Assembly: GCA_964612485.1 (NCBI GenBank)
Contig: CAZTFF010000018.1
Location: 12,598-76,597, forward strand
Source: an uncultured Caldilineaceae bacterium
Lineage (GTDB): Bacteria; Chloroflexota; Anaerolineae; 4572-78; J111
Length of the DNA stretch: 64,000 nucleotides
Reading direction: 5' to 3'
Shown here: positions 24,101-61,799 of the stretch, one piece after another
How positions within the stretch are numbered: position 1 is the stretch's first letter
Layout: every line of letters begins with the position of its first letter
The notes under the pieces: generated by a model
What the model saw: the letters and a program-made list of their open reading frames with translations, nothing else
What the model was told of the DNA's origin: nothing
The model's database searches: none
Position numbers and translations under genes: made by a program

Positions 24101-25665
24101 GTGCCATCAACGTGAGTGCCGGGCGAGAAAAGCAGGCCGCCCGAACCGGCGGCGGTACTGTGCCGGACAAACGTCGAGCCGGTGAGGTCCGGGTCGCGGG
24201 TGAGCGATTGGTTATCGCCTCCCTCGCTGCCGTAAGTGTGCGCGGCCCGGTTGGTTGTTCCATCATTTAGGGTCAGCGCATCACCGCCGTTATTCAACCC
24301 CAGAGTTCCGGCTGTTTGCACGATGGCATCGCCAAACGTGCCGGTGGGCGTACCGCCGCCAAAAACCACTATCGCGCATTGGTCCGGCATGATGGTGTTT
24401 GGCGGAAACGTATGGCGAGGGCCGGTGTTGTCGGCAAGCGTCCAGCCGGAAATATCAACCGGGCTGCCGGTGTTGTTGATGAGTTCCACAAATTCATCAT
24501 CGCCGGTATCAACCATGCCGTCACCGTTGGCATCGCCCGCAGTGCTGTCGGGGTCGGCGTGAATTTCATTGATGATCCAGCCGCTGGTGGTGGTGAAATC
24601 AAACGTGTAGTCGGCGGCCATAGGATTGCCGGTGGCGTCAGTAATCTGAGCGCCCCATATTGAAACTGTACAGCTTTCATTGTTGGCAAAGCGGGTATCG
24701 GGATTTAAGGTGTATTGCTGCGGCCCACCGCTGACCGTGGCCGAATGGGAGCCGCTGTTGGCGCAGGTAATATCAAACCATGGTTCGATGACATTGACCG
24801 CCTCATTGAACATGATTTGGATATTCGTTTCCGCGGCCACATCGGTATCGTCGGAATTTGGCGTTGTGCCGGTGACAGACGGGGGTGCATCGCCGATTTG
24901 GATATTGTCAAGCCCGTATTCATCCCGGCTGCCGCCCCCGCTGATATCGTCGCCCGTCCATTTGAGATAGAAAAAATCACCGTTGTTGATGTTCAGGCCG
25001 GTGAGAGCGGTGGCGCGGTGTGCGGTTTGCCAGGGCAGGCCATCGGCGGCTTCCGGCGTGGTGAAATCGAGCGAGGGCATGGTGGTGTACGTCACATTAT
25101 CCGGGGAAAAAGAGAAGTTTAAGGCGTTGGCTCGATCTTCGTTGTTGAGGTAGCGGATGTCATATTCAACCGCCAACTCGGTCAATAGGGAGCCGCTGTT
25201 GTTTTGCAGTTGCAGCGTGATCTCGCCGGGGGCAAAGTCTGCGCCGGTGGGCTGCACGCCCAAAATGATGTCTCCGCCGCCGGCATCGAAGGCGTATACG
25301 CCGCCGGTAGTGGCGTTGCCGCTTGATGTTCCTCTGGCAAAATCGTCCGCTTCCCGCGCATCGCCAAAATTCATAGCGCCGTCAGACAGGCCATTGACAA
25401 TCCAGATATCAGAGTCCAACTGCCCCGGATTGGGCGCAGGGTTAAATCCACTCCCCGTAAAGCTATCAAAATTTTCTGTAAAGGGGATGGGACCGCTGGC
25501 CAATATTTTTGGCGGCGATACAAAACAAAAAACAATAAGTAAAATAAAAATAGTTGGTAATTTTGGCCCACGAAAAAAACCGCTATTCCACGCAAGACTG
25601 CCTGAAACAGCGGTTTTTAAGGTGGACCGTTTGCGGCAAACGATCACGGTGTTATCCTCCCTCAA
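21142..25665 (-). CDS. Secreted 1507-aa multidomain protein: 3 lamin-tail domains, SbsA/Big_5 Ig-like domains, PHP-family metallophosphoesterase domain, C-terminal OB-like domain
   Basis: Signal/anchor LPTIFILLIVFCFVSPPKILA. The three LTDs read INEIHADPDS...DEFVELINNTGSPVDISGWTLADN, LISEFVYDG...DEYIEICNPNSAPLDLAGYKIGDE and INEILPAPYD...DEWVELYNLLDQPVGLGGWRLTDN. The PHP domain reads YWGDLHAHTSYSDG...FAITDHGH. Ig-like segments show the P..TP....DV.....I.I.F.E.V pattern. Confidence 0.85.
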   Translation of the reverse strand: MREDNTVIVCRKRSTLKTAVSGSLAWNSGFFRGPKLPTIFILLIVFCFVSPPKILASGPIPFTENFDSFTGSGFNPAPNPGQLDSDIWIVNGLSDGAMNFGDAREADDFARGTSSGNATTGGVYAFDAGGGDIILGVQPTGADFAPGEITLQLQNNSGSLLTELAVEYDIRYLNNEDRANALNFSFSPDNVTYTTMPSLDFTTPEAADGLPWQTAHRATALTGLNINNGDFFYLKWTGDDISGGGSRDEYGLDNIQIGDAPPSVTGTTPNSDDTDVAAETNIQIMFNEAVNVIEPWFDITCANSGSHSATVSGGPQQYTLNPDTRFANNESCTVSIWGAQITDATGNPMAADYTFDFTTTSGWIINEIHADPDSTAGDANGDGMVDTGDDEFVELINNTGSPVDISGWTLADNTGPRHTFPPNTIMPDQCAIVVFGGGTPTGTFGDAIVQTAGTLGLNNGGDALTLNDGTTNRAAHTYGSEGGDNQSLTRDPDLTGSTFVRHSTAAGSGGLLFSPGTHVDGTPFGSCLPPDNPPTVTATNPVDTAIDVPVNTSITLQFSEMVSVSAAALAIECPAGAPVPFNMTPTITATAFALTPAANLPYQTTCTVVIPATGVVDQDGSPDPLNANHSFTFTTIAPPPSPDPLLISEFVYDGTASSTEGDEYIEICNPNSAPLDLAGYKIGDEETNGGGEGMYSLPGGIILAPDDCLVIAKSGSDFFARFDEWPDYEIIESDPAIPTLNKYTTWSSGNWALSNNGDELIVLGPNDEILDSVAYRNGDYEILNLEPDASAPEPHSLQRIWPVDTNSMPYDFVRAGPNPGVPTIPPSPAPVTAPPPADLPDGMHAYWGDLHAHTSYSDGAGPPYYALALARAAGHHFFAITDHGHSLSLHEWNQTLTQTNQATEAGQFVALRGVEWTHRTEGHINIFNNAALLSREDPQFDTLTKMYDWLATQPDTIAQLNHPGINYDGDFESFPFNSQAFPIITLQEIGNNARDYLTYESAFIQSNMMGWAVAPTNNSDIHTAHWGSDSATRTGIVAPALTQPDLLDAMRARRVFATEDSNLALALRLNNHWMGSVITTTGRITLTIDVTDADSEAVTVWLYDGNLPLATVPFDTNPGQWSTTVTARPGHFFWVKAIQADGDTAYSAPIWITGEASPDPITINEILPAPYDWDWDGNGMPDHTDEWVELYNLLDQPVGLGGWRLTDNSNLSYTIPLDTIIPARGFITFYQAQTGFSLNNDGDTVSLIHPNGTVVDTFTYTHSPGYDETWCRLPDGQTSWSEDCGPSPNRKNWKKEASGPLKVSIFEAKQLTLDAWVRVEGQVTAPPGLLGSRTMYIQDETSGILIYLPKDHKICNLGDTVEVEGYLKNYHEELEIKVNERSDVKCVESGSPPPPLPVATTSILEPYEGMLVMIQGQAVDFKGRATMWVDDGTDPAKVYIRQRTGIRKPFIERGTTVTVVGIVSQYSEDGITSRDEYRMLPRYQNDLIVPETPVPANWPTLLPETGF

Positions 25666-28236: not shown

Positions 28237-28257
28237 TGGTATACTACCCCTACTATG
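28237..28257 (+). promoter_or_regulatory. Extended -10 promoter TGGTATACT 9 nt before ATG 28255; near-leaderless start
   Basis: TG at 28237-28238, TATACT at 28240-28245, ATG at 28255-28257. The intervening acccctact has no SD. Confidence 0.3.
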
Positions 28258-30918
28258 CACATCATTGTCACCCATCCCAATGCAGATTTTGATGCCATCG
28301 CTTCGCTGCTGGGCGCATCCCGCCTGTACGCCGAGGCGGTTCCGGTGCTGCCCAATACCGTTAATCGCAATGTGCGCGATTTTATTACCCTCTATGAAAA
28401 CCAATTGCCTTTTGTGCGGTTCAATGAGTTGGACCGCTCGCCTATCACGCATTTAACCGTGGTGGATACCCAGCAAATCCCCACCCTCAAACGCATGGCG
28501 TCCGATGTTGAAATTCATATCATCGATCACCACGACGTCCACGGCCCGCTGCCTGCCGGCGCTACGCTCAGCCTGGCCGAAACCGGGGCCACCGCCACCC
28601 TGTTGATCGAACAAATTCGAGAAGCCTCCCTGCCCCTGTCCTCCATCGAGGCCACCCTGCTGCTGCTGGGCATTTACGAGGATACCGGCTCGCTGACTTA
28701 CGCCAACACCAGCCCGCGCGATCTCCAGGCGGCGGCCTGGCTGCTGGCGGAAAAAGGCGCGCGGTTGGACATTATGCGCGAATATCTCAACTACGCCATG
28801 AGCGATGAGCAAAAAACGCTCTACGATCAACTGGTGGAGCGTCTGGAAACGCGCACCATCCACGGCCATACGGTCATCATCGGCATGGCCAGCGTAGAAC
28901 ACTACGTTGAAGAGATCAGCACCCTGGCCCACCGCCTGCGCGACCTGTACCAGCCCGAAGCCTTGTTCATTCTCATCGAAATGTCGGACCACATCCAAAT
29001 GGTGGCTCGCTCCGTAACCGAGGCCATCGATGTGGCCCGTATTGCCGAAAATTTTGATGGCGGCGGCCATCCCCGCGCGGCAGCAGCGCTGGTCAAAGAG
29101 AAATCGCTGCCGGAGCTGCGCCGGGACCTGCTCAACCTGTTGGATCTAGAGGTGCAGCCGGCCACCGTGGTGGCCCAGTTGATGTCGAAAGGGGCGCGAA
29201 CCCTGGCCCCCGGTGATACGGTGCGCCACGCCTCCCAAATGATGAACCGGTACGGCCACGAGGGATTCCCGGTGGTTGATCCAAAAGTTGGCAAAATTGT
29301 GGGCGTTCTCTCGCGCCGGGAGATTGATAAAGCCTGCCGCCACAAGCTGGAAGGCGCCGCCATCTATCAATTTATGAAAAAGGGCGAATTTTTTGTCACC
29401 CCCACCGACAGCGTGGATGTAGTGCAACGCTTGATGACCGAAGAAGGCATCGGCCAGGTTCCCGTAGTCAACCAGCCCGGCGGCGAGATCATCGGCATTG
29501 TCACCCGCACCGATCTGATCAACCTGTGGCAGCTCACCAACGGCGAGGAGCCGCGCCAGCCCGATTTGACTCCGCAGTTGGAAAATGCGCTGTCCAGTTC
29601 GCTGCTTCAACTTTTGCGCGAGGCCGGCGAACTGGCCGTGGGCCAGGGCGACACGCTCTACCTGGTGGGCGGTTTTGTGCGGGATCTATTATTGACCATG
29701 CGGGCTGAAGAACAGGGACACGCCCCCGCCAAAACCAGCCCCAGATTTGATCTGGATTTGGTGGTTGAGGGCGATGCCATTGCCCTGGCCCGGCGCTTGA
29801 GCGCGCGCCACAACGGGCGGGTACACAGCCACGGGCGTTTTGGCACGGCCAAGTGGCTGCTGAAAACTCCGCTGCCGTTTTCGCAAGACTCCGGCGGGCC
29901 GTTGTTGAACTCGCTGGATTTTGTGACCGCCCGCAGCGAGTTTTACCAACATCCGTCAGCGCTGCCGGAGGTGGAGCAGAGCTCTATCCGGCAGGATTTG
30001 CACCGGCGCGATTTCACCATCAATACCCTGGCCCTGCGCCTGACGCCGGAACGCTTTGGCGAGCTGCTGGATTTTTACGGCGGCCAGAATGATCTGGACG
30101 CCCGGCTGATCCGCGTGCTGCACAGCCTCAGTTTTGTAGAAGACCCCACCCGCATGCTGCGGGCGGCCCGGATCATGGCCCGGCTCGATTTTGCTCTGGA
30201 AGAGCGCACGGCTGAACTGCTGAAGAGCGCGCTCGACCTGCTCCGGCGGGTCAGCGGCGAGCGCATCGAGCATGAATTGGACCTGATCTTTCGGGAAGAC
30301 GCGCCGGAAAAGGTGCTGCAAGTGCTGGATCGTTTGGGTATTCTGACGGCCATCCATCCCGGCCTGATGGTTGACTCGTGGCTGGTGGACCGGGTTCAAC
30401 AGTTACGAACCGGTCTTTCCGGCACACCCTGGGCGGAGATGGAGCCGGGCCTGGCCCATTACCTGGCCCTGGTGGTGTTTTGGCTGGCCGGGGATGAGCT
30501 GACCGAATTCATCGAACGGCTCAATTTGCGTTCTGAACAGCGCAAAATTATCCGAGGAACATACCAGATTCGCGCCAAGAAACAGGCCATTATGGAGGCT
30601 AAAAAGGCCAGCGAGTTGTATCGATGGCTGTCATCAACCACAAAAGATTCTCGGATGGTGGCCTGGATCGGCTTGCGGCATGAGGCTGAGGCGGTGTGCC
30701 GCCAACTGGAACGTTTTGAGGTTGAGTTGCGAGACGTCGCTCCCATCATTGATGGCCACTATCTGAAAAGCGAATTCAATCTAAAACCGGATCCCATTTT
30801 TAGAACCATTCTTGATTCGCTGCGCGATGCCCGGCTGGATGGGGACGTTCACACGCTGGATGATGAACGGGCCTTGGTGCGGAAGATTTTGGCGGATCAG
30901 GATTTTGCGCCAGAATGA
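28255..30918 (+). CDS. Fusion protein: DHH/DHHA1 phosphoesterase + CBS pair + poly(A) polymerase/CCA-adding nucleotidyltransferase
   Basis: HPNADFDAIASLLG and IIDHHD (DHH), GGGHPRAAAA (DHHA1), and two CBS modules. These are followed by LVGGFVRDLLL...DLDLVVEGDA (polymerase-beta head of the tRNA nucleotidyltransferase/PAP family) and RDFTINTLA. Confidence 0.88.
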   Translation: MHIIVTHPNADFDAIASLLGASRLYAEAVPVLPNTVNRNVRDFITLYENQLPFVRFNELDRSPITHLTVVDTQQIPTLKRMASDVEIHIIDHHDVHGPLPAGATLSLAETGATATLLIEQIREASLPLSSIEATLLLLGIYEDTGSLTYANTSPRDLQAAAWLLAEKGARLDIMREYLNYAMSDEQKTLYDQLVERLETRTIHGHTVIIGMASVEHYVEEISTLAHRLRDLYQPEALFILIEMSDHIQMVARSVTEAIDVARIAENFDGGGHPRAAAALVKEKSLPELRRDLLNLLDLEVQPATVVAQLMSKGARTLAPGDTVRHASQMMNRYGHEGFPVVDPKVGKIVGVLSRREIDKACRHKLEGAAIYQFMKKGEFFVTPTDSVDVVQRLMTEEGIGQVPVVNQPGGEIIGIVTRTDLINLWQLTNGEEPRQPDLTPQLENALSSSLLQLLREAGELAVGQGDTLYLVGGFVRDLLLTMRAEEQGHAPAKTSPRFDLDLVVEGDAIALARRLSARHNGRVHSHGRFGTAKWLLKTPLPFSQDSGGPLLNSLDFVTARSEFYQHPSALPEVEQSSIRQDLHRRDFTINTLALRLTPERFGELLDFYGGQNDLDARLIRVLHSLSFVEDPTRMLRAARIMARLDFALEERTAELLKSALDLLRRVSGERIEHELDLIFREDAPEKVLQVLDRLGILTAIHPGLMVDSWLVDRVQQLRTGLSGTPWAEMEPGLAHYLALVVFWLAGDELTEFIERLNLRSEQRKIIRGTYQIRAKKQAIMEAKKASELYRWLSSTTKDSRMVAWIGLRHEAEAVCRQLERFEVELRDVAPIIDGHYLKSEFNLKPDPIFRTILDSLRDARLDGDVHTLDDERALVRKILADQDFAPE

Positions 30919-40317: not shown

Positions 40318-40896
40318 ATGACCCAAACCCTGCTTTTTTATGGCGATTCCCGCGCCGCCGATTGGCCCGCCCCCGATGTGCCCGGTTATGCCGTGGTCAA
40401 TCGCGGCGTGGGCGGCCAAACCTCGGCGGAGGCAGTGGCTTATCTGGATAGCGCGCTGGCGGGCCTACAGCCCAACATTGTGGTGGTGCAAATTGGGGTC
40501 AATGATCTTTCGATGCTCACCTTCAACCCCAACCAGCGCGCGGCAATTGTAGAGACGTGCCGGCGCAATATCCGGCAGCTTGTGGCCCGGTTAGCAGACA
40601 TCAGCGAGTGCGTAGTTTTGACCACCATTTTCCCCATAGGCGATGCGGAGCTATTCTTTTACGATGTTAGTGAAATGATCGACGCGCTGGATGAGGTGAA
40701 CGACTTTATCCATGCCCTGGCCGGCCCTCAGATAACCATTTTTGACGCCTATGCCGTTTTAGCGGCGGACGACGGCCTGGTTCAGCCCGATTATGCTCTG
40801 GATATGCTGCATCTCAATCCGTTGGGCTACCGGGCGCTGAATCGGGCTTTGATCGATGTTTTTGCCACGTTAGTAGGGCCGCAATCCCCAGTGTAA
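40318..40896 (+). CDS. SGNH/GDSL-family hydrolase
   Basis: ATG 40318 within ORF 40243..40896. LLFYGDSRA (GDS block I), NRGVGGQTS (block II), GVNDL (block III), and DMLHLN (block V DxxH). Confidence 0.82.
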   Translation: MTQTLLFYGDSRAADWPAPDVPGYAVVNRGVGGQTSAEAVAYLDSALAGLQPNIVVVQIGVNDLSMLTFNPNQRAAIVETCRRNIRQLVARLADISECVVLTTIFPIGDAELFFYDVSEMIDALDEVNDFIHALAGPQITIFDAYAVLAADDGLVQPDYALDMLHLNPLGYRALNRALIDVFATLVGPQSPV

Positions 40897-43213
40897 CCAA
40901 TACTCCCACCGACAGCCACACTCCCATGCGAAATGAGATTGGTTTGTACGAAAATACAATCTCGTGTTCCCCGGCGGGCACCAACACCGCCCGGCCAATG
41001 GTGTTGGCGCGATAGATTGGCGTTGGGGTGCCGTCCACTGTCGCCACCCAGCCCGGATAAAACGTATCGAGTAGCACCAGGTAGCCGTCGGCAGTCAGGT
41101 TGGCTTTCAGGCGGATCATTTGAGGATTTTCGTCGATGATGGTGGCTGTGCCGGTGACGCCCTCTGGCGGAGCAGCCGGAGCCGGGAGTTCGGCATCAGT
41201 TTCCAGCACCACGGTTTCAGCGGGATTGATGCTGCGGCCCTGGAGATAGCCCAGCGCCTCTTCCGGCGAGTTGGCCGGCACCACGTCGTGAACAATGAAA
41301 GCGCGGGGCAGCGGGTTCGGGTTTTCGTAAACAAACGACGCCCCCATCTCATCTGAGGCCGCCTCGCTGTAAACCAGGGGATAGGTGGCGGCCACGTCCG
41401 CGCCCATCTGGCCCAGCGTGAGCAGATATTTGGCCCCCACCACCTGGATGGCCTGCACCGGATCGGCTTCGTGCAAAAAGGTATTGTACCGGGCCATCAA
41501 CAGCGACGAGCCGTGGCCGCCCGCGCTCCGCACCCGGTACACCGAGGGAAAATATTGCCCCAAATGGCTGACCGCCGCCGCCTCGCTGCCCATCCCCAGC
41601 GGAAAGACCCGCGCCTCGCCTGCGTTGTCCAAAACGTACTGCGCCCCGCCGGACAATTCTTGCCACCATTCCGCCGGTTTGGTGGGGTTGATGGTGGTGC
41701 CGCCCGCCGCGGCCAGCTCAAGCGCGAGGACCAGGATGAGCAGGATCGCAAAACTCTGCCGGCTGAGTCGTCGAAAGGCGTAGAGCGAGAAAAGCGCAAC
41801 AGTCAAAATAATGTTGACTCCCAGCAGCGCCGCCGGTGTACTTAGCCCAACCAAAAATGAAGGCCACAACCGTTGCCGGTAAATTTCGTCAAAGGTGAAG
41901 GCTTTGTCGAGGATGGCCTGAGTTAGTTTGTGCTGCGGTTCCACGCTAAACCGCCAGATGAGGCCGCCAACCACCAGCAGCACCAGCATACCGATCAAAA
42001 TGGCCAGCGCCCGGCGGGAAACGCTGCGTTGCAGCACGGCGTCCATGCCCAGGCCGGCCAGCACGGCCAGGGCCAGATTGACACCCATCAGCCAGCGGGA
42101 CGGAATGCGGAACAGGTCGAAACCGGGCAGGTATTGGATTACCGTTTGGTACAGCGGCGTGTACTGCCCGGCGGCCAGCAGCCCGGCCCCGATCAGCAGA
42201 AAAACAAAAAATAGCGCGTCTCGTTTGCGGCGCTGCGGCCAGGCAAAAAAAACCAGCACCAGCGAAATGAAGCCCGCGTAAATAAAATCTTCCTGAAAGG
42301 GATCGCCGCCTTCAAAGCCAACCACGTTGTTGCCAAAGGCGCCGGGCAAAAGCAGGTTGAGCCACATGGCCGGCGGCAGCGAGTTTTCGGTAAGGAACTC
42401 AAAGCCGCGTTCCTGAGACCGTACGGAAAGTTGCTGTAGTTCCAGCGTGGGCAGCAGTTGGGGCGCGGCCAGCAGCAGCCCGGCAATGATGACCACGGCC
42501 AGCAGCAAAAGCGTGTGCGCTGCATATTTTAATTTTTGAGATACAGGCCCCATGCCGGAGAAAAAATCGACCGGAAGACGGTACGCGCCATAACTCACCA
42601 TCATCACCAGCGTGTAGAATACAATTTGGGGCTGGGACGTAAAGATTTGCAGCGCCAGCGGAAGGCCCGCCAGCAGCGCCATCAGCCGGCTTCGCTGCCG
42701 GATGGTTTGGATCACGCCATACAGAATCAATGGCAGCCAGGCCGCGCCGGTCATAATGTTGAGGTTGGGAACTTGCCCCATCAAAAAGCCGCCAAATCCA
42801 TAGGCTAAACCGGCTACGGCTGCGGCGGCCCAGCTCAACCCCATTGAGCGGGCCAGCAGCACGGTAAAAAAAGCTGCCAGAGGAAAATGGAGCATAATAA
42901 ACAGCGAGAGTTCCAACGAGGGCGACAGCGAACTCAAAAAGAGCAGGCTGAAGGGGTACAACACGCCTACCTGGGATTCGGCCAGCAGGGGAATACCGGT
43001 ATCTTCGTAGGGGTCCCACAGCGGCACGCGCCCGGCCAACCATTCGGAGGCGGCAAAAATGTGGCGCGGGTAGTGGATCCAGCTCAAATCTGTCCAGTAG
43101 AGCGTTTTGCCGCCCCAAATCAGTTCAGGAAATGCCAGGAATGGGAGGGTAAGAAAAAGAAGCGCGATCCAAAACAGGGGATGATGTGTCATTTTCTGGA
43201 AAAAAATTTTCAA
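40814..43213 (-). CDS. YfhO-family polytopic membrane protein (putative glycosyl-transfer/glycan-modifying)
   Basis: 799 aa with more than 12 TM helices and a large C-terminal extracytoplasmic domain ending in a final TM helix. This architecture and the N-terminal WDPYEDTGIPLLAESQ-type motif are typical of YfhO. Confidence 0.7.
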   Translation of the reverse strand: MKIFFQKMTHHPLFWIALLFLTLPFLAFPELIWGGKTLYWTDLSWIHYPRHIFAASEWLAGRVPLWDPYEDTGIPLLAESQVGVLYPFSLLFLSSLSPSLELSLFIMLHFPLAAFFTVLLARSMGLSWAAAAVAGLAYGFGGFLMGQVPNLNIMTGAAWLPLILYGVIQTIRQRSRLMALLAGLPLALQIFTSQPQIVFYTLVMMVSYGAYRLPVDFFSGMGPVSQKLKYAAHTLLLLAVVIIAGLLLAAPQLLPTLELQQLSVRSQERGFEFLTENSLPPAMWLNLLLPGAFGNNVVGFEGGDPFQEDFIYAGFISLVLVFFAWPQRRKRDALFFVFLLIGAGLLAAGQYTPLYQTVIQYLPGFDLFRIPSRWLMGVNLALAVLAGLGMDAVLQRSVSRRALAILIGMLVLLVVGGLIWRFSVEPQHKLTQAILDKAFTFDEIYRQRLWPSFLVGLSTPAALLGVNIILTVALFSLYAFRRLSRQSFAILLILVLALELAAAGGTTINPTKPAEWWQELSGGAQYVLDNAGEARVFPLGMGSEAAAVSHLGQYFPSVYRVRSAGGHGSSLLMARYNTFLHEADPVQAIQVVGAKYLLTLGQMGADVAATYPLVYSEAASDEMGASFVYENPNPLPRAFIVHDVVPANSPEEALGYLQGRSINPAETVVLETDAELPAPAAPPEGVTGTATIIDENPQMIRLKANLTADGYLVLLDTFYPGWVATVDGTPTPIYRANTIGRAVLVPAGEHEIVFSYKPISFRMGVWLSVGVLVTLGIAALLTWQKHRSKPDSAPGSPTD

Positions 43214-51856: not shown

Positions 51857-52789
51857 ATGACAGTTTTTGTAACCGGGGGATACGGACAGATCGCCTCCTG
51901 GGCGGTTTATTACCTGGCCAAAGCGGGCCGGGATGTGGTGGTGTATGATCTCAACCCGCAGCCGCCCGATTATCTGGATGAGGTGGCCGGCAAGATTACC
52001 TTTGTAAAAGGCGATGTGCTGGACATGGCCCGGCTGGCCGACACCATCAAAAAATACCAATCTCAGATTGACGGTATTATTCACACGGTCGGCATCATGG
52101 GCGAGTTAGTGCAGCAAAACGCTTATTACAATATGAGGCTGAATGTGATGGGCCTGGTGAATGTGATGGAAATGGCCCGCATCTTTAACATCAAAAAAGT
52201 GCTTTACACCAGCACCGGCGCGGTGTATGGCTTGGCGCAGGGCATTGTGCCGGAAGATACCCCGCTGGCCCCCACCGATTTATACGCCTCGACCAAGGTT
52301 TCCAGCGAGCATCTGGGCATGCAATTTGCCAACACGTTTGGACTGGATTTTCGCGTAGCCAGAGTTTATTTTGTTTATGGGCCGGGCAAACTGCCGTCTA
52401 ATTTTATCAACCTCTATCGTATGGCGTTTGGCGCGTTGCAGGGCATTCAAGGGTTGAAAATGGATAAAGGTGGCGAGCAAAAGCTGGATTTCACTTACGC
52501 CGAAGATGCGGGCCGGGGGGTGGCCGTGCTGTACCAGGCCGAAAACCCGCCCCATCAAATTTATAATCTGGCCACCGGCAAAGCCAGCAGCGTGGGTGAA
52601 GCCATTGAGCTTTCTAAAAAGTACACCCACTACCCGGTTGAGGTTGACATCGGCCCCGGCGAGTTGATGAAACGGTGCGAAGCCCTGGATGTCAGCCGCG
52701 CCGAAGCCGAGTTGGGTTTCAGCACGCAATACTCGCTGGAAGACGGTATCAAAAGTTACGCCGGCTGGCTCAAAAAACAGTTGGGGTGA
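51857..52789 (+). CDS. NAD-dependent epimerase/dehydratase (SDR)
   Basis: VFVTGGYGQIASW Rossmann motif, YTSTGAVYG, and YASTK (YxxxK). Confidence 0.82.
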   Translation: MTVFVTGGYGQIASWAVYYLAKAGRDVVVYDLNPQPPDYLDEVAGKITFVKGDVLDMARLADTIKKYQSQIDGIIHTVGIMGELVQQNAYYNMRLNVMGLVNVMEMARIFNIKKVLYTSTGAVYGLAQGIVPEDTPLAPTDLYASTKVSSEHLGMQFANTFGLDFRVARVYFVYGPGKLPSNFINLYRMAFGALQGIQGLKMDKGGEQKLDFTYAEDAGRGVAVLYQAENPPHQIYNLATGKASSVGEAIELSKKYTHYPVEVDIGPGELMKRCEALDVSRAEAELGFSTQYSLEDGIKSYAGWLKKQLG

Positions 52790-54072: not shown

Positions 54073-55488
54073 TTGAAAAACAAAAGCTTTGTAGAAAAAC
54101 TCACCGGCGCGATTACCCGCAATAATTCGCTGCTGTGCGTCGGTTTGGACCCCAACCCGCAAAAATACCCCGATCATTTTGGCTCCACTATCGATGAAGA
54201 AACATTGTTCCAATGGGGCCGCCGCATCGTCGAACAAACCGCCGATCTGGTATGCTGTTACAAACCCAACAGCGCTTTTTACGAGCAGTACGGGGCCGCT
54301 GGCTGGCAGGCCCTGTGCCGGACCATCGCCGAAGTCCCCAACGATATTCCCGTTCTGCTCGATGCCAAGCGCGGCGACATCGGCAGCACCGCCGAAGCCT
54401 ACGCCCGCGCTGCTTTTGAAACCCTCGACGCGGATGCCATCACCGCCAACGCCTACCTGGGCGGGGACAGCATTGCGCCGTTCCTGGCTTATCCAGGCAA
54501 GATGGTGTTTGTTTTGTGTTACACCTCTAACCCGTCGGCCCAAGAAATGCAGGAATTTGGCCCGGCGGACGAGCCTTTGTTTGAATTTGTGGCGTATCAG
54601 GCCCAAAGCTGGGGCAGCGAGGCACAGATTGGCTTTGTGGTTGGCGCTACGCAGCCGCAAGCCCTGGCCCGGTTTCGGGAACTCAACCAAAACTGGGTAT
54701 TGGCTCCCGGCGTCGGCGCTCAGGGCGGCGATCCGGCAGCGGCACTCTCTGCCGGTCTGAATAGTGATGGTCTGGGCATGATCGTGCCTGTATCGCGGGG
54801 CGTGATTTATGCTGATGACCCTCGCGCGGCAGCGGCAGCCCTGCGAGACGAGATCAATCTGGCCCGGCAGCAAGTTGGGTCAAAACAGGCTGTTTCGGCT
54901 CATACAGACCTGATCCTCAAATTGCACGAGGCGGGCTGCGTTCAGTTTGGCGATTTTACCCTGGCTTCGGGCCGGCAGTCGCCGTTTTATATTGACCTAC
55001 GCCGCGTGCCCGGCGATGCCGCGTTGTTAAAACAGGTGGCCCGCGCTTACGCCGCCATGCTTCGCCCCCTTTCTTTCGATCATATTGCCGGCGTGCCCTA
55101 CGCCGCGCTGCCCATTGGCACCGCCGTGGCCCTGTTGCTGAACAAACCGTTGATCTATCCGCGCAAAGAGACCAAAGCGCACGGCACCGGTAAAAGCATC
55201 GAAGGGGTTTTTGCGGCGGGCGACCGGGCGGTGATGATCGAAGATTTGGTGACCAGCGGCGGCAGCGTGATCCAAGCGGCTGAGTTGTTGCAGGCCGCCG
55301 GGCTGGAGGTGTCGGATGTGGCCGTGTTGATAGACCGCGAACAGGGCGGCGCTAATAACCTGGCCGAAAAAGGCTACCGTCTCCACGCCGCGCTGCAACT
55401 ATCAGAAATTCTTACCGTTTTACATCAAACAAATCGAATTTCCACCCAACAATACCAACGGGTACAAGCGTATTTGGCCGAAAATTAA
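54073..55488 (+). CDS. pyrFE: Bifunctional OMP decarboxylase (type 2) / orotate phosphoribosyltransferase fusion
   Basis: N-terminal half: LCVGLDPNP and LLDAKRGDIGSTAEAYA (type-2 PyrF). C-terminal half: GDFTLASGRQSPFYIDLRR and VMIEDLVTSGGS (the PyrE PRPP loop). TTG start at 54073 after GGAGG. Confidence 0.88.
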   Translation: MKNKSFVEKLTGAITRNNSLLCVGLDPNPQKYPDHFGSTIDEETLFQWGRRIVEQTADLVCCYKPNSAFYEQYGAAGWQALCRTIAEVPNDIPVLLDAKRGDIGSTAEAYARAAFETLDADAITANAYLGGDSIAPFLAYPGKMVFVLCYTSNPSAQEMQEFGPADEPLFEFVAYQAQSWGSEAQIGFVVGATQPQALARFRELNQNWVLAPGVGAQGGDPAAALSAGLNSDGLGMIVPVSRGVIYADDPRAAAAALRDEINLARQQVGSKQAVSAHTDLILKLHEAGCVQFGDFTLASGRQSPFYIDLRRVPGDAALLKQVARAYAAMLRPLSFDHIAGVPYAALPIGTAVALLLNKPLIYPRKETKAHGTGKSIEGVFAAGDRAVMIEDLVTSGGSVIQAAELLQAAGLEVSDVAVLIDREQGGANNLAEKGYRLHAALQLSEILTVLHQTNRISTQQYQRVQAYLAEN

Positions 55489-55537: not shown

Positions 55538-56527
55538 ATGACAACCCTAAAACCCCTTTTTGATTTAGATGAACTGACCTCGGCCCCGGCCATCGGCAAC
55601 GGGATGACGGGCCAGGACATTTTGTCGGTTGCCCAATTTGACCCGGAAAAACTCTCTTACATTTTTACCCGCGCCCGCGAAATGCGAGACATGGTGCAGA
55701 AAGTGGGCGGTACCACCATGCTGGCCGGCTCGGTGCTAACATGTCTGTTTTACGAACCCAGCACCCGCACCAGCGCCTCGTTCATTGCCGCCATGGAACG
55801 GCTGGGCGGCAGCGTCATCCCCATCACCCAGGGCGTGCAATTCAGCTCGGTGAGTAAGGGCGAAACGCTGGCCGATACCATCCGCACCCTGGAACAGTAT
55901 TCCGACGTGATCGTGCTGCGCCACCCGGAAATCGGCGCGGCCAAAACCGCGGCAGATTATGCTGATGTGCCCATCATCAATGCCGGCGATGGCACCGGTG
56001 AGCATCCAACCCAGGCGCTGCTCGATCTCTTTACCATCCGGGAGGAGTTGGGCACGGTTGATGGATTGAAAATAGTCATGGTGGGCGATTTGCGGTACGG
56101 GCGCACGGTTCACTCCTTAACCAAGCTGCTGGCCCAGTATGATGTCAGCCTGCGCTTTGTCTCGCCGGAAATTTTGCGGATGCCGCTGGTGATCATGAAT
56201 GAGGTCATCGACGCCGGCATGGATGTCCGCGAGACTCACGATGTGGCCGACGTGATTGAAAATGCCGATGTGCTGTACGTGACCCGCGTGCAAAAAGAAC
56301 GTTTTACCGATCTGGCCCAGTACGAAGAGGTGAAAAATCAATACGAGATCACCTCGGAGTTGATGCAAAAGGCCAAAGACAAAATGGTGGTGATGCACCC
56401 CCTGCCTCGCGTGGGCGAAATTCATTACAATGTTGATGACGACCCGCGCGCGGCTTATTTCCGGCAGGTGAAAAACGGGATGTACATTCGTATGGCGCTG
56501 CTGGCCGCGGTTTTGGGCAAGGCATAA
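55538..56527 (+). CDS. pyrB: Aspartate carbamoyltransferase catalytic subunit
   Basis: [24 protein letters not shown], and [11 protein letters not shown]. Confidence 0.93.
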
Positions 56528-56530
56528 TAT

Positions 56531-56735
56531 CGAATCCGCGAAGTCACTCGAAGAGTCGCTAAGAATTTTTTCGGTTCATGTATAGAATCTGTGCATGTCA
56601 TTGCGAGCGAAGCGAAGCAATCCCCATTCGGTGAGGGTGGAGACCGCTCCGCCTTCGGCTCGCGGTGACATGTCCGCACTTGTTTTTTCCATGAGTTAAA
56701 TCCCCTTGGCGTGACTTCGCAGCCCTTCGCGGATT
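56531..56735. repeat. Nested palindromic repeat block at a convergent junction
   Basis: Outer inverted repeat: aatccgcgaag (56533-56543) pairs with cttcgcggatt (56725-56735), plus gcgaagtcac with gtgacttcgc. Inner inverted repeat: catgtcattgcgagcgaag (56594-56612) pairs with cttcggctcgcggtgacatg (56653-56672). Confidence 0.75.
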
Positions 56736-56756
56736 TTGTTTCCTGTACTTTTTGTT

Positions 56757-59714
56757 TTAAACGGTTCGCCCGAACCGCCACCCCTGCTTGCGATAAAGAT
56801 ACCAGCCCAACATCAGCGCGGCCAGCCCCATCAACAGCCATTCTTCCGGTTCCGGCACGCCGGTGACCATCGGATTGTTTTCGGGAATCGTTTCGCCGAT
56901 CTCTTCGTATTCGCGCTGGAAGCGATCTTCTCCGGCCTCTAAATTATCGAGCGTTTTTTCTTGCCGCTCGGTAACCAGCACAATCATCGATGAATAGGGG
57001 GTTACAATGCTGTGTTCTTTGGCCATGGCGTGGATGTGGTCCAATACGTCTAATTGCTTCAACGCTTGTTGTTGATCGTGCATCGTAGCCAGGATAAGAC
57101 GCCGGGCGGCCAGGGCTGCAAAATTATCATTGGGCGTGTGGAAGTTGGTTATGTTGGCAAATTCAACCGGAGCCTCCGGCGGGAAGGTAAGCCACAGGTA
57201 ACCATCGATCAGATCGGCCCGGGTTCCGGCCGGCGCGTCGGGCCAGCCGCCCATCATCGCCAGGTTCAGGCGGGTGAGCGCCTCATCCACGCTGCCGGCC
57301 ACGCCGCCGCCGCTGGCCTGAATGGCTTCCAGCGTGGCATCATCGTAACCCAGGGGAAAGTTGCCGTTCAAATGAACCATCCACACCGGGGCGTTGGGCG
57401 TGGGCACATCCAGGGCTTCATCGCCCAACTCGTAGCCGGTGTCGTCGGTGATGACCAGCACGGCATCGTATGTTTCATCTTGATGCAGTTTATCGTACTG
57501 AATCAGGAGTTCCGCCGCGTTTTGCCCGCCGTAGTACAAAATATCGGAATTCAATTGGCTCAACGAAACCCGCGACGGAGCCTCGCCCCGGTATTCCGAG
57601 GCGGTCAGGTAAATGTCGATGGTTGCGCCGTTATCGATCAAATTTTGAAGTTGGGGCCAGATGGCGTCCATTTCATCGGCATAGACGGCCATACTGCGGG
57701 AGCGGTCCAGCACAATGGCCAGTTGCACGTCATCAGCAAGGGCCGGTGTTTCCGCCGCGACCGGGGCGGGCTGCAGCACCACTGTTTCGCCGCCGGGAAA
57801 CTCAACTTGATGCGCCACCGGCGTTACTTCCACGTCTGCCGCTACCGTTTCCGGCAGCCAGGCATCTTCTGCGGCCTGCATCGGTTCGCCGTTGATCTGC
57901 CGCACCGACTCGTCGTTCCAATAGACGTTGCGTTTTTCGGCCAGGTGGGGCATCGGCCAAGCGTTGCCTTGGGCCAGCACGCGCCACGTCACCCACATAT
58001 GCAGCGGCGGGGCTTCGTCGAACCTGGTGCGGTTGGTGTCGGCGTCCCAACGGATGTTCACGGGTTCCACCGGGAAAATCCGCAGCCGGTACTGGCGCGG
58101 GCCAATTTGCTCCAGCAAGGCAGGGTCGCGATTGTACCGGACTTCGCGGCGATAAATCTCCTGGGCCGCTCCTCGCGGCGAAACACGGTAGACAAAACGC
58201 GCGTCCCGGTCGCTGCTGTTGCCCAGCCACACGCCCGTCATCACCGCGGACTCCGGCAGGCTGAAATAGTAAATCACTTCCTGCCGTTGGCCGGTCTGGT
58301 TTTGGTACACTTCGTATAGTTCCACATCGGCCCAATCGCCATACTCCGTAATGTTGATTTCTTGATGCGTCAGCAGCACTTCGCGGTCGTCCACGGCCTG
58401 CCAGGCGGCTTCGGCCTGGTCGATGGACCAGGTAGAGCGGGCGGCCCGCACCACGGCCTCGCGTTCGCCGTCGTTGATCGGTTGGTCGAAAAAGGCTTCG
58501 TAGAGTTCGGCAGCCTCGTGGGGTTCGCGGCTCAGGGCGCGATTCTCCCAGCGGAATCGCCCGCCGTTAAACTGGTCCAGTTCGGCGGCCAGCTCGTCGG
58601 TGGATTGGACCGGCTGGTAGAGGATGGGCCGAGCCACGGTTTCGTACATTCCCTGGATTTGTCTAGCTTGATCGGGCGTCATATCAAAAGCGCCTTTGTA
58701 CATCTGGCTGACGTGGTCTACCTCGCCGGCGGCGCTAAAGTAGCGCTGGGGGGCCAGATAAGCATTGAGCAGCCCGGCCCGGATCGTCTCCTGCCGGTCA
58801 AGCAGGGCCTGGGCCTCGGCAGGGGTGGTGGGGATGTTTTCCAGCAGGGCAAAGGCTTGCTGCTGCGGCTGCCGATTGGCCGGAATGAACAGGGCCACAC
58901 AGACCACTACGGCGCCGGCGCTCAGGGCCGCGGCCCGAGGCCACGGATAACGCGTTATAAAAGCGCGGACCCCCTGCCACCAGGCCCGGCTGTATAAAAT
59001 GGGCACGGCGATGGGCATGGCGATAAACAACGTGGCGGTGTAAGCAAATAGCAGAAATCCCAACACAAAAAACGGGATCGACCACCAGGGGAAATCGCTC
59101 TGGCCACTGAACGCCCGGCCTGCTTCTCTGAGAAAATCGGGAATCCCCCGGATCATCTCCACAAAAAACTCCCAGGCAAAAACGCTGAGTGGCAGCGCGT
59201 AGAAAGCCAGCCACACAGCGGCATACAGCCCGGTCAGCAGCAACAGGGTCAGCCCGACCACCCGCAGGTGGGTGAGGGTGGGGGCGCGTTCATCGATGCG
59301 GCGGTCAATGATTTGCCATAACAGGGTGAGAATGCCCAGGCCGGCCACGGTTAGCAGAATGGTGACCGCCGGGGTCATTTCTCGCACCACAAAAAAACGA
59401 ATGGCGATCATCAGCATCAGCGGCCCTTCCACGCCGTAGCCCAGCAGCAGAAGTTTGCCGGGCGAGGCGCGTAAAAGCGTAAAGCCGATGACCACCGCGG
59501 CAATGGGAATTGAGGTGAGGATGATGGCGTACAGCAGAAAGGTCCAGGGGATGGTTTCGGTTTGCACGGCTACGATCATTTCCGGCAGCAGTTGGGGAGC
59601 AAACCCCAATACCATAAATGCCAAAAAAATAGTGTTCCACGACCAGAACAGGCCGTAGGCCCAGCCTTCCCAGGTGATGACGGCGCGAATAAATTTGAAA
59701 GTCTTTCTCATCAT
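56757..59714 (-). CDS. Polytopic membrane protein with VIT-like + vWA domains and a C-terminal PEP-CTERM sorting signal
   Basis: About 10 N-terminal TM helices. The VIT-like stretch reads YYFSLPESAVMTGVWLG....YRVSPRGAAQEIYRRE...LLEQIGPRQYRLRIFPVEP. The vWA MIDAS motif is AIVLDRSRSM ... VLVITDD. The C-terminus VTGVPEPEEWLLMGLAALMLGWYLYRKQGWRFGR gives PEP + TM + basic. Confidence 0.85.
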   Translation of the reverse strand: MMRKTFKFIRAVITWEGWAYGLFWSWNTIFLAFMVLGFAPQLLPEMIVAVQTETIPWTFLLYAIILTSIPIAAVVIGFTLLRASPGKLLLLGYGVEGPLMLMIAIRFFVVREMTPAVTILLTVAGLGILTLLWQIIDRRIDERAPTLTHLRVVGLTLLLLTGLYAAVWLAFYALPLSVFAWEFFVEMIRGIPDFLREAGRAFSGQSDFPWWSIPFFVLGFLLFAYTATLFIAMPIAVPILYSRAWWQGVRAFITRYPWPRAAALSAGAVVVCVALFIPANRQPQQQAFALLENIPTTPAEAQALLDRQETIRAGLLNAYLAPQRYFSAAGEVDHVSQMYKGAFDMTPDQARQIQGMYETVARPILYQPVQSTDELAAELDQFNGGRFRWENRALSREPHEAAELYEAFFDQPINDGEREAVVRAARSTWSIDQAEAAWQAVDDREVLLTHQEINITEYGDWADVELYEVYQNQTGQRQEVIYYFSLPESAVMTGVWLGNSSDRDARFVYRVSPRGAAQEIYRREVRYNRDPALLEQIGPRQYRLRIFPVEPVNIRWDADTNRTRFDEAPPLHMWVTWRVLAQGNAWPMPHLAEKRNVYWNDESVRQINGEPMQAAEDAWLPETVAADVEVTPVAHQVEFPGGETVVLQPAPVAAETPALADDVQLAIVLDRSRSMAVYADEMDAIWPQLQNLIDNGATIDIYLTASEYRGEAPSRVSLSQLNSDILYYGGQNAAELLIQYDKLHQDETYDAVLVITDDTGYELGDEALDVPTPNAPVWMVHLNGNFPLGYDDATLEAIQASGGGVAGSVDEALTRLNLAMMGGWPDAPAGTRADLIDGYLWLTFPPEAPVEFANITNFHTPNDNFAALAARRLILATMHDQQQALKQLDVLDHIHAMAKEHSIVTPYSSMIVLVTERQEKTLDNLEAGEDRFQREYEEIGETIPENNPMVTGVPEPEEWLLMGLAALMLGWYLYRKQGWRFGRTV

Positions 59715-59761
59715 AGCCCTCCATTAATTGTGAATTTTTAATTTTTAATTGATTCGCTGAA

Positions 59762-61297
59762 TCACTGACTCGCTGATTCGTTCAAATGCTGGATTACAGC
59801 CTTTTGTAATTGGGTGTAAAAAATTTCTATCCGTTTCGTGTTGGGATTGTGTACCTCATCAAACAAAATTGAAACCAGCATCCAGCGGTCGCGTTGCGGG
59901 GACAGGTCGGCCCAGATGCGGGTGGCGTAGTCGTCGGTGGTGCGGGTGGGGGATTGGAACCAGTAGGCGGCGGAGAGCAGGCTGCGGCCCTCGCCATCGC
60001 CCAGCGAGACGAGCCGTAAAGGAAAGCCGGGGTTGACCAGGTGGGGATGGGAGTTGTCGATGGTGAGGCCGTAGACTTCAAAACAGCGTTCGGGCCGGTG
60101 GTGGGCGCGCCAGGTGCGGCTGGTGACCAAGATCATCGAGCCGGTGAGTCGTTGCTCGCCATGCTGCCATTCGAAGCGGAAGCGGTCGGCGGATTCGGCG
60201 CCGTCGCGGGTGAACCATTCCTGCTCATCCGGTTTGAGGGGCAGCGGCGTGGTGGTAAATTCGGAGGGGAAGTTCCACGGTTGGGCGGTGTGCGTCAGGC
60301 CGGTTTGCGGGCGCTGCGCGTACAGCAAGCCCATCGCTAAAAAGGTGATAACCAGGACGGGTGCCAGCCACCGGGGACGGAGTGGAATTACAGTCGGCGT
60401 TGGCGGTGTTGATGGAAGGGACGGTTGGCGGCGCAGCAGGATCATCACCGCCGCGCAGGCGGCCACAAATCCTAATACGCCCAGCGGAATGTGCAGCATC
60501 TCGGCGGCCAGCATCCAGCCCTGCACCTGCCCCACAAGGACCAAAATACCGACCCGGATTAGATTGACTCCAAACAGCAGACCGGAAAACACAGCCGCGA
60601 TCACCAGCCAACGCCCATCGAGACGGCGCTGTTCGATCCAGGTGGCCGCTATCAGAAACAGCATCCCGGTCCACAGGCTTTTGACGCCGCTGCACGGCAG
60701 ATCGATCTGAGAAACGCCGTTTTCCAAAATCAAAATGGTGTCCACGCCCACCGAGCCGATCCCGGCGGCGGCCAGGCCATCGCGCACAATGCCGGCGGTG
60801 AAGATACGCATGGGGTAGCCGATGAAGGTTTGCATGTGGTCGCCAAAAGGGAGGGTGCCCATCAGCAGCAGGGCAGCGGGCAACCCCTGCCGCCACTGGT
60901 GAGGTTGCATCCACAGGCCCAGCAGGCCGTAGCCGGCCAGGGCAAAAAGGCTGGCGGAGATCGTATTGATGTCGAAAAATCGTTCCTCCAGCAGGTAGAG
61001 GGCCGAGCCGCCCAGGGCCAACGCCAACCCAGGCCAAAAGAGACGAGGCGCTGCCGCCAAACGGGGGCGAAAGGTGCCGCTGCGAATTTGGAAGGCAATC
61101 AGGAGGCCCACGCCCAGCAGCACCCACTGGTTGGTGCGGAAATCTTCGCGGCCAAAGATGACGGAAAAATAACCAAACATCCCCCGGTAGAGCCAGAGCC
61201 AGGCCAGTAGAACAACCAAATTGAGGGCCGGTTGTCTGATGTTTGTCAGAGTGATCGCGCGTTTATTTGATTGAGTTGGGGACTCCATTGTTGTCAT
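59762..61297 (-). CDS. Exosortase fused to a C-terminal EpsI-family domain
   Basis: Eight-TM core with QIDLPCSGVKSLW (catalytic Cys), VNLIRVG (Arg) and MLHIPLG (His). After a further TM helix comes a ~190-aa domain (WNFP...FEWQHGEQRLTGSMILVTS...HRPERCF...YWFQS) resembling EpsI. It lies 47 nt upstream of its putative substrate gene. Confidence 0.85.
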   Translation of the reverse strand: MTTMESPTQSNKRAITLTNIRQPALNLVVLLAWLWLYRGMFGYFSVIFGREDFRTNQWVLLGVGLLIAFQIRSGTFRPRLAAAPRLFWPGLALALGGSALYLLEERFFDINTISASLFALAGYGLLGLWMQPHQWRQGLPAALLLMGTLPFGDHMQTFIGYPMRIFTAGIVRDGLAAAGIGSVGVDTILILENGVSQIDLPCSGVKSLWTGMLFLIAATWIEQRRLDGRWLVIAAVFSGLLFGVNLIRVGILVLVGQVQGWMLAAEMLHIPLGVLGFVAACAAVMILLRRQPSLPSTPPTPTVIPLRPRWLAPVLVITFLAMGLLYAQRPQTGLTHTAQPWNFPSEFTTTPLPLKPDEQEWFTRDGAESADRFRFEWQHGEQRLTGSMILVTSRTWRAHHRPERCFEVYGLTIDNSHPHLVNPGFPLRLVSLGDGEGRSLLSAAYWFQSPTRTTDDYATRIWADLSPQRDRWMLVSILFDEVHNPNTKRIEIFYTQLQKAVIQHLNESASQ

Positions 61298-61663
61298 TCG
61301 GTTTCCCCGCCGAACTTCTCTTCTCCACGAGTATTGTGTTTAAACAATATTGGAAATAGAAAAAAACTCAAATTCCACTGAGAAAAATCGGCCGGATTTA
61401 TGGAATCAAAAATAGCCTTTAAATTATACGTTGCTTTTGGGAAAAACCTTTGATTATCTTTTGTGAGGTCAAAAACCGTGTCCCGGCGTGGCTTCGATAC
61501 CGTCTCACTCTTTGTGTAGGTATCCACTTCATTTCGCAGCTACTCAAGGCGGAATTTGAGGAAAATCATCTTGAATAGGCCGTAAGTCTGTATCGGAAGC
61601 TACTTTTGAACAGAAGGTAGCTCTGCATTAAACCGTGATTGTACGTAATGAGGCCCAATCTGC

Positions 61664-61743
61664 CACGAATTAGCACGAATTTCACTAATTTTACTAATTT
61701 TTTCTCTTAATTCGTGTAATTCGTGACGAGAAACTTCCGTCAC
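61664..61743. repeat. Hairpin built from tandem 9-nt words (CACGAATTA-type) downstream of the enolase-superfamily gene
   Basis: cacgaattagcacgaatt (61664-61681) pairs with aattcgtgtaattcgtg (61709-61725). tcactaattttactaatt lies in the loop region. A second small stem pairs gtgac with gtcac (61723-61743). Confidence 0.7.
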
Positions 61744-61799
61744 GGTTAACTGCGGTCTTACCGAACAGAATATTGTCCTGTTTTTACTCTTGTTATTTT

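Follow-up and report, generated by a model that had tools for sequence, protein, structure and literature searches.

When an exosortase gene is followed directly by the gene of a large membrane protein that ends in a PEP-CTERM sorting signal, the question arises whether the two form a complete sorting system, one enzyme serving one substrate, and what such an enzyme would do to a protein that is already held in the membrane by other means. The 64-kb stretch of DNA analysed here (hereafter the window; contig CAZTFF010000018.1 of assembly GCA_964612485.1, from an uncultured Caldilineaceae bacterium) carries such a pair on its minus strand, at positions 56757–61297. An earlier reading of the letters and open reading frames (ORFs), made without database searches (the sequence-only reading), had proposed a self-contained unit of an exosortase and a single adjacent substrate. 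The pair is the already curated XrtO (TIGR04489)/TIGR02921 system, rediscovered here and biochemically uncharacterised, and we consider it likely that it constitutes a dedicated protein-sorting system of an Anaerolineae-type Chloroflexota genome.

The upstream gene encodes a protein that scores 363.4 bits against the exosortase O model TIGR04489 (cutoff 250; E=1.6e-108; profile positions 30–451 of 451) and 79 bits against Pfam PF09721, and the classification of the subfamily with profile models, suggested beforehand as a check, thus gives exosortase O. The Cys/Arg/His exosortase signature that had been read from the letters is real: the motifs C202-S-G204, N245-L-I-R248 and H269-I-P-L-G273 are each unique within the catalytic core, and none of C202, N245, R248, H269 and G273 varies among 24 aligned homologues, which are 57–78% identical to the window XrtO. 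These three are also the defining motifs of the EpsH/exosortase family (Haft et al., 2006, PMC1569441). The product of the downstream gene scores 683.1 bits against TIGR02921 (cutoff 200; profile positions 7–919 of 922). For each protein about 1000 public relatives were found in a search of about 5.8 billion proteins, nearly all of them in metagenome-assembled genomes (MAGs) of Anaerolineae/Chloroflexota, and many already carry the names "exosortase O", "TIGR02921 family PEP-CTERM protein" or "putative PEP-CTERM system integral membrane protein" at NCBI and JGI. A protein identical to the window XrtO is present in public data, and the window sequence is matched by Logan assemblies of runs SRR7048227 and SRR7048225.

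The arrangement of the two genes is conserved among genomes. In a sample of 80 xrtO loci from species-representative genomes, 71 had enough sequence downstream of xrtO, and a TIGR02921 gene follows on the same strand in 70 of these, directly adjacent in 69. In L012 the target lies 2.7 kb downstream, and the insertion holds two ORFs for polytopic membrane proteins of 480 and 317 aa (L012 9088–11625). Clustering of all ORFs against each other across the loci gave no third conserved gene beside xrtO and its target; a third conserved partner was accordingly rejected as a candidate, the next commonest neighbour cluster being generic histidine kinases (15 of 81 loci). Adjacency of enzyme and target as consecutive genes is a published hallmark of dedicated sorting systems (Haft; Haft and Varghese, 2011), and regular co-occurrence as consecutive genes, as described by Haft, is what is found for XrtO and TIGR02921.

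Some loci of the sample deserve separate mention. In L061 (11539–14429) the target gene is split into ORFs of 202 and 751 aa by a frameshift or an assembly error, and the PEP-CTERM tail is intact. In L016 and L074 xrtO is found on short contigs that had been assigned to Acidobacteriota and Bosea MAGs; as these genes are 63–66% identical to the Chloroflexota query, this probably reflects mis-binning rather than lateral transfer.

The locus in the window has the following features, all on the minus strand:

59762–61297 (−): xrtO, exosortase O, 511 aa, with its stop codon at 59762–59764 (matches to TIGR04489 and PF09721)
60428–61297 (−): catalytic membrane core of the exosortase, aa 1–290, with Cys202-x-Gly, Asn245-x-x-Arg248 and His269-x-x-x-Gly273; a helical bundle in the AlphaFold2 (AF2) model
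59765–60313 (−): extra transmembrane (TM) helix (aa ~311–325) and then a predicted extracytoplasmic, beta-rich EpsI-like domain (aa ~329–511), from the XrtO model and sub-cutoff EpsI matches
59715–59761 (−): intergenic spacer of 47 nt with the ribosome-binding site GGAGGG at 59717–59722, as read from the sequence
56757–59714 (−): TIGR02921-family PEP-CTERM integral membrane protein, 985 aa, predicted to be the sole XrtO substrate (TIGR02921 score and synteny)
58872–59666 (−): N-terminal bundle of seven predicted TM helices of the target, aa ~17–281 (alignment-averaged hydropathy; lysine and arginine, K/R, per loop)
58380–58871 (−): helical ectodomain segment of the target, aa 282–445, of no family (AF2 helices, conservation)
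57915–58379 (−): VIT domain region of the target, aa ~446–600 (PF08487, conservation, fold of inter-alpha-inhibitor heavy chain 1, ITIH1)
57075–57737 (−): vWA domain of the target, aa ~660–880, with the DxSxS motif of its metal-ion-dependent adhesion site (MIDAS) at nt 57693–57707 (fold, invariant motifs)
56760–56864 (−): PEP-CTERM sorting signal of the target, aa 951–985 (TIGR02595, conservation in orthologues)
61298–61799 (−): upstream non-coding region, presumed to hold the operon promoter, its location deduced from the 502-nt gap to the next gene

Both ORFs and the 47-nt gap between them are where the sequence-only reading had placed them, according to the ORF list and the sequence itself. 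The start of the target gene is likelier to be the second ATG (59711), giving 984 aa, since GGAGGG lies 5 nt from this codon and only 2 nt from the first ATG (59714), a better spacing, and since the public record of the product is 984 aa long. A promoter scan upstream of xrtO returned one weak sigma-70-like site (61666–61638) against 2.4±1.4 in shuffled sequence, which is not above expectation, and a terminator scan returned 13 terminator-like sites against 8.0±2.8, not clearly in excess. A 128-aa ORF that overlaps the 3' end of the target gene (56455–56841, minus strand) was taken as spurious.

The C-terminus of the target consists of TGVPEPEEW, a TM helix (959–975) and the basic stretch RKQGWRFGR, and the description of this end as a textbook PEP-CTERM signal is upheld by TIGR02595, which gives the isolated tail 18.4 bits (cutoff 16); on a longer fragment of 413 aa the score is 15.0 bits, below the cutoff. 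V953, P954, E955, P956, E958 and W959 are invariant in the homologues of the target. Conservation of the motif in orthologues had been named beforehand as a test, and TGVPEP[E/H]E[W/Y]LL followed by a TM helix is found in 61 of 61 complete orthologue C-termini. A profile made from the last ~50 residues gave 240 matches at E<=1e-3 among 1.84 billion representative proteins; among the best 150 matches at least 113 are TIGR02921 family members or fragments of them, and the remaining matches are mostly further fragments, relatives resembling the XrtN target, or generic PEP-CTERM proteins with weak scores. The extended TGVPEPEEW-type signal thus appears nearly specific to the TIGR02921 family.

Three polytopic VIT proteins with VPEPEEW-type tails (P0338, P0352, and P0381) score 117–132 bits on the XrtN-target model (cutoff 250) and resemble MSEP-CTERM proteins at the N-terminus. 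They seem to belong, as yet uncurated, to a wider superfamily of polytopic VIT proteins that are sorted.

The sequence-only reading had counted about 10 N-terminal TM helices in the target, and this number has to be lowered: hydropathy averaged over the alignment gives seven hydrophobic N-terminal segments, and the K/R distribution shows loops that obey the positive-inside rule. A Kyte-Doolittle scan with strict thresholds broke up or missed TM helices, and the averaged hydropathy was used instead. The predicted topology has the N-terminus inside, residues ~282–955 outside and the basic C-terminal tail inside. The N-terminal 443 aa matched no transporter, enzyme or other family in Pfam, the helical segment at aa 282–445 likewise had no Pfam match, and no significant fold match spans the TM bundle in a Foldseek search of the PDB. 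These parts are conserved: the helical segment has 37 invariant columns of 164, and the TM bundle has 46 invariant columns with conserved polar residues within its helices (e.g., E96, N27, D137). Mean conservation in the target alignment is 0.67 for the TM bundle, 0.68 for the vWA domain and 0.81 for the VIT region, the highest value in the protein, with 62 invariant columns of 155. That the TM bundle is so strongly conserved points to a role beyond anchoring.

Both domains that had been proposed for the ectodomain are recovered. Pfam PF08487 (VIT) matches aa 450–551 with 36 bits (cutoff 26.5). The Pfam VWA models give no match on the target and the Pfam PEP-CTERM models likewise miss the tail, and the two calls rest on fold, motifs and NCBIfam in place of Pfam. 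In the AF2 model of the target, which is of moderate confidence overall (mean predicted local distance difference test, pLDDT, 63.6), the vWA region reaches 70–86 and shows an alternating beta/alpha pattern. The top PDB match of this model is ITIH1, itself a VIT+vWA protein (Foldseek, E=3.8e-7, ~610 columns), and further fold matches of the vWA region include the integrin beta-I domain (integrin beta3), SpaC and CMG2, with alpha2-delta subunits also among the matches. Of the MIDAS residues, D670, S672, S674 and D757 do not vary, and at least 90% of the homologues have T756. Judged from fold and motifs, a vWA domain with an intact DxSxS MIDAS is present in the target, and it is predicted to bind metal.

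The EpsI-like domain that had been proposed to be fused to the exosortase stands in part. The AF2 model of XrtO (pLDDT 75.8) shows a helical membrane core, a helix at 311–325 and a beta-rich domain (347–479) capped by a helix, in keeping with the layout of the exosortase O subfamily, a polytopic core of about 8 TM helices and then an extracytoplasmic C-terminal domain. The C-terminal domain alone scores 138 bits on TIGR04489 (profile 286–451) and holds an invariant WRAHHRPERCFEVYG motif in the homologue alignment. Similarity to EpsI is consistent among family members: PF11984 matches 17 of 18 (best E 1.3e-4), EpsI_type_V 11 of 18 and TIGR02914 9 of 18, all below their cutoffs and with no competing family. 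The window protein itself scores 15.7–16.8 bits on PF11984 (cutoff 26.1) and falls short of membership in the EpsI family. By these scores the XrtO C-terminal domain is a distant EpsI-like relative and not a scored EpsI member. Some EpsH proteins bear a fused region homologous to EpsI (Haft et al., 2006, PMC1569441). The arginine-rich loop at 288–310 argues that the last XrtO helix carries this domain to the outside. A fold search of the PDB with the XrtO model gave nothing under E=0.1 and, for the C-terminal domain, only weak noise of the Bet v 1/START type, and PDB sequences searched with profiles of the XrtO and TIGR02921 families gave no match.

In the predicted topology the target would insert by its seven N-terminal TM helices with the N-terminus in the cytoplasm, and would expose an ectodomain of ~670 aa made up of the helical segment, an ITIH-like VIT domain, a vWA domain with MIDAS and a helical stalk. 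The PEP-CTERM helix would re-enter the membrane with its basic tail inside, so that the ectodomain would initially be tethered at both ends. If XrtO works as sortases, archaeosortase A and related exosortases do, its Cys202, predicted near the outer face of the membrane, would attack the PEP motif and remove the C-terminal helix through a thioester (acyl-enzyme) intermediate, which may be hydrolysed or, more probably, pass the new C-terminus on to an acceptor in the envelope, a glycan or a lipid. The fused EpsI-like domain would take the role that separate EpsI proteins have in XrtA systems, and may aid in the handling of acceptor or substrate. Because the target keeps its seven-helix anchor, processing would free or re-attach only the C-terminal end of the doubly tethered ectodomain, and the target in its mature form would be displayed at the surface, anchored by the TM bundle and able to bind a ligand in a metal-dependent manner.

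Several points weigh against the pair being a dedicated sorting system that works in this way. A literature search on XrtO/TIGR02921 found no experiment on either protein; cleavage, its site and the acceptor are inferred. The target model is only moderately confident, with the pLDDT of 63.6 given above. The general view of Chloroflexota is that they have no outer membrane, so that the destination which the PEP-CTERM paradigm gives to a processed end does not fit the host phylum readily. That classical paradigm presumes an outer membrane together with genes for extracellular polysaccharide (EPS) production (Haft et al., 2006, PMC1569441). The sample of loci contains an orphan xrtO, L020 (10001–21398), with no TIGR02921 gene within 10 kb; xrtO is there followed by an AraC-type regulator and small unrelated genes, and the closely related L018 has a normal pair. 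Finally, a few small proteins from outside the family have TGVPEPxEW-like tails, which makes additional substrates possible. These proteins (P0324, P0332, P0335, and P0379; 105–253 aa) are unrelated to TIGR02921, and in some genomes could be extra exosortase substrates.

The orphan gene and the small proteins speak for an XrtO of wider use, which would act on a number of PEP-CTERM proteins and for an EPS locus elsewhere in the genome, with the TIGR02921 protein just one of its substrates, and classical exosortases are indeed many-to-one (PMC1569441). The gene neighbourhoods speak against it: a search of the window and of all 80 loci to 10 kb from xrtO (~1.3 Mb of flanks) gave no second PEP-CTERM-like tail, and no EPS locus was found in the 64-kb window, in agreement with the absence of both from the vicinity that had been noted from the letters. 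Adjacency in 70 of 71 loci is moreover the pattern of single-target genomes in other sorting systems, where it marks single-target and not multi-target genomes (Haft and Varghese, 2011), and the extended signal is nearly family-specific. An XrtO with several substrates is for these reasons quite unlikely, and the proposal of a self-contained exosortase with a single adjacent substrate gains support from the synteny, the lack of a third neighbour, the invariant signal and the family-specific tail profile.

If the dedicated pair is accepted, it could still be that XrtO does not cut. The PEP-CTERM helix would in that case be a permanent second anchor and XrtO a non-proteolytic scaffold or chaperone, without sorting or cleavage; seven TM helices already retain the target, which makes removal of an anchor unnecessary for retention, and the highly conserved TM bundle could dock XrtO. 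However, Cys202, Arg248 and His269 of the enzyme and the VPEP of the target are strictly invariant across more than 50% sequence divergence, as an active enzyme-substrate pair predicts, and homologous exosortases and archaeosortases process their targets, so that this explanation appears very improbable. Equally hard to credit is the idea that the pair is a membrane device (transporter, channel or sensor) in which the vWA/MIDAS domain is a regulatory sensor and cleavage by XrtO a one-time activation switch rather than a step towards display, for although the TM bundle is conserved like the vWA domain, with its invariant columns and invariant polar residues in the helices, and vWA domains regulate channels elsewhere (e.g., the alpha2-delta subunits among the fold matches), the bundle has no transporter or enzyme family match in Pfam and no significant fold match, and such a device is in any case compatible with sorting and does not exclude it.

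With a dedicated sorting system as the preferred explanation, one may ask what the enzyme would do with the new C-terminus. It is conceivable, though on balance unlikely, that in a host without an outer membrane, as Chloroflexota are usually held to be, XrtO acts as a transpeptidase or transesterase that would join the new C-terminus of the ITIH-like ectodomain, anchored by its seven TM helices, covalently to a glycan of the envelope or sheath, with the EpsI-like domain selecting the acceptor and the TM bundle coupling the linkage to a membrane function. If true, the product would be a covalent staple between membrane and matrix, and would correspond in a prokaryote to the ester bond by which the C-terminus of ITIH is joined to glycosaminoglycans.

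The genes around the pair in the window are housekeeping or catabolic and include those of an RluD-type pseudouridine synthase, MiaA, an ABC-F protein, a GMC oxidoreductase, PyrC, a PyrF-PyrE fusion, PyrB, a sugar-acid dehydratase and a zinc-dependent alcohol dehydrogenase. The fusion of orotidine monophosphate decarboxylase and phosphoribosyltransferase (pyrF-pyrE; 54073–55488, plus strand) has pyrC and pyrB as its neighbours and lies a short way downstream of the pair. Genes with a relation to glycans are limited to a YfhO-family (GT-C-like) membrane protein (40814–43213, minus strand) and a generic short-chain dehydrogenase/reductase (51857–52789, plus strand) that resembles sugar epimerases/dehydratases, and the two form no EPS cluster. 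Farther away, the window encodes a protein of 1507 aa with three Lamin Tail Domains, two Big_5 domains, a PHP domain and OB-fold matches, which has the look of a large surface or nuclease-like protein (21142–25665, minus strand), a YidC/60KD_IMP membrane insertase with an N-terminal DUF11, an unusual fusion (18472–19869, minus strand), and an 887-aa fusion of a DHH-DHHA1 phosphoesterase, a CBS pair and poly(A) polymerase/CCA-adding head domains (28255–30918, plus strand).

As a discovery the pair carries little weight, as the NCBI pipeline already names both proteins and the paper that founded the PEP-CTERM field had pointed out the family as exceptional. What value it has is that of an experimental handle: one enzyme, one substrate and no accessory genes, in a system that is abundant among Anaerolineae of sludge and sediment. 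This makes it one of the cleanest settings for exosortase chemistry, i.e., for the cleavage site, the acceptor and the purpose of EpsI domains, and it could show why VIT-vWA proteins have time and again acquired C-terminal sorting enzymes of their own. A Chloroflexota host and the absence of an EPS locus are also at odds with the rule as first formulated, under which PEP-CTERM systems require an outer membrane and EPS genes.

The pair was compared with several known systems. From the XrtO/TIGR02921 family the window pair differs in nothing substantive: scores, architecture, adjacency and Chloroflexota setting are shared, and only local details are its own, namely the probable second-ATG start and unrelated flanking genes. 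An integral-membrane PEP-CTERM family with multiple TM segments was singled out as exceptional by Haft et al. (2006, PMC1569441). The XrtN system (TIGR04476/TIGR04477) and the MSEP-CTERM system (TIGR04286) likewise consist of a dedicated enzyme and one large VIT target that ends in a sorting signal, and an EpsI-like C-terminal domain is common to XrtN, XrtT and XrtO; the enzyme subfamily and the details of the signal are different. The window target scores 45.2 bits on TIGR04477 (cutoff 250), in its C-terminal region only, which does not make it an XrtN target, and 17 bits on the MSEP-CTERM model TIGR04286, far under the cutoff of 150. As the target shares detectable homology with the targets of XrtN and MSEP-CTERM, and XrtT and XrtN share the C-terminal domain of XrtO, these pairs look like diverged sister systems and not like convergent ones.

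A marine proteobacterial sortase (TIGR03784) and its LPXTG-bearing VIT-vWA target (TIGR03788) resemble the XrtO pair in that a single VIT-vWA protein has a dedicated enzyme beside it, whereas the sortase fold is unrelated to that of exosortases, the signal is LPXTG and a polytopic N-terminal domain is missing from the target, in which VIT begins at profile position 4. The VIT/vWA family bears GlyGly-CTERM, PEP-CTERM or LPXTG tails (Haft and Varghese, 2011). The sequence-only reading had called the system convergent, and this is right with respect to the sortase-coupled VIT-vWA targets, whose enzyme has an unrelated fold, but not with respect to the XrtN and MSEP-CTERM targets, where homology is detectable.

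With the classical XrtA/EpsH-EpsI systems the pair shares the motifs C-x-G, N-x-x-R and H-x-x-x-G, the tripartite signal and a fused or adjacent EpsI-type domain (PMC1569441). Classical XrtA is many-to-one, with a median of 8 substrates, which have signal peptides and no internal TM helices; it is located in EPS loci, and its hosts possess an outer membrane (PMC1569441). In contrast, the XrtO pair has one polytopic substrate, no EPS locus in the 64-kb window and a Chloroflexota host. Archaeosortase A is a homologue of XrtO with the same triad, and differs in being archaeal and many-to-one, in its signal and in having substrates without an N-terminal polytopic anchor. For archaeosortase A and PGF-CTERM, experiments show C-terminal cleavage and lipid anchoring of substrates (PMC7157517).

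The last comparison is with a eukaryotic protein. ITIH1 (PDB 6FPY) is the best structural likeness to the target ectodomain, with a VIT and a vWA domain with MIDAS; unlike the target, ITIH proteins are soluble and secreted, are ~10% identical in sequence, have no membrane domain and depend on unrelated processing machinery. ITIH heavy chains are cut near the C-terminus, and the new C-terminus is ester-linked to a glycosaminoglycan. By analogy, this C-terminal ester linkage would parallel the C-terminal transfer reaction proposed for the XrtO target.

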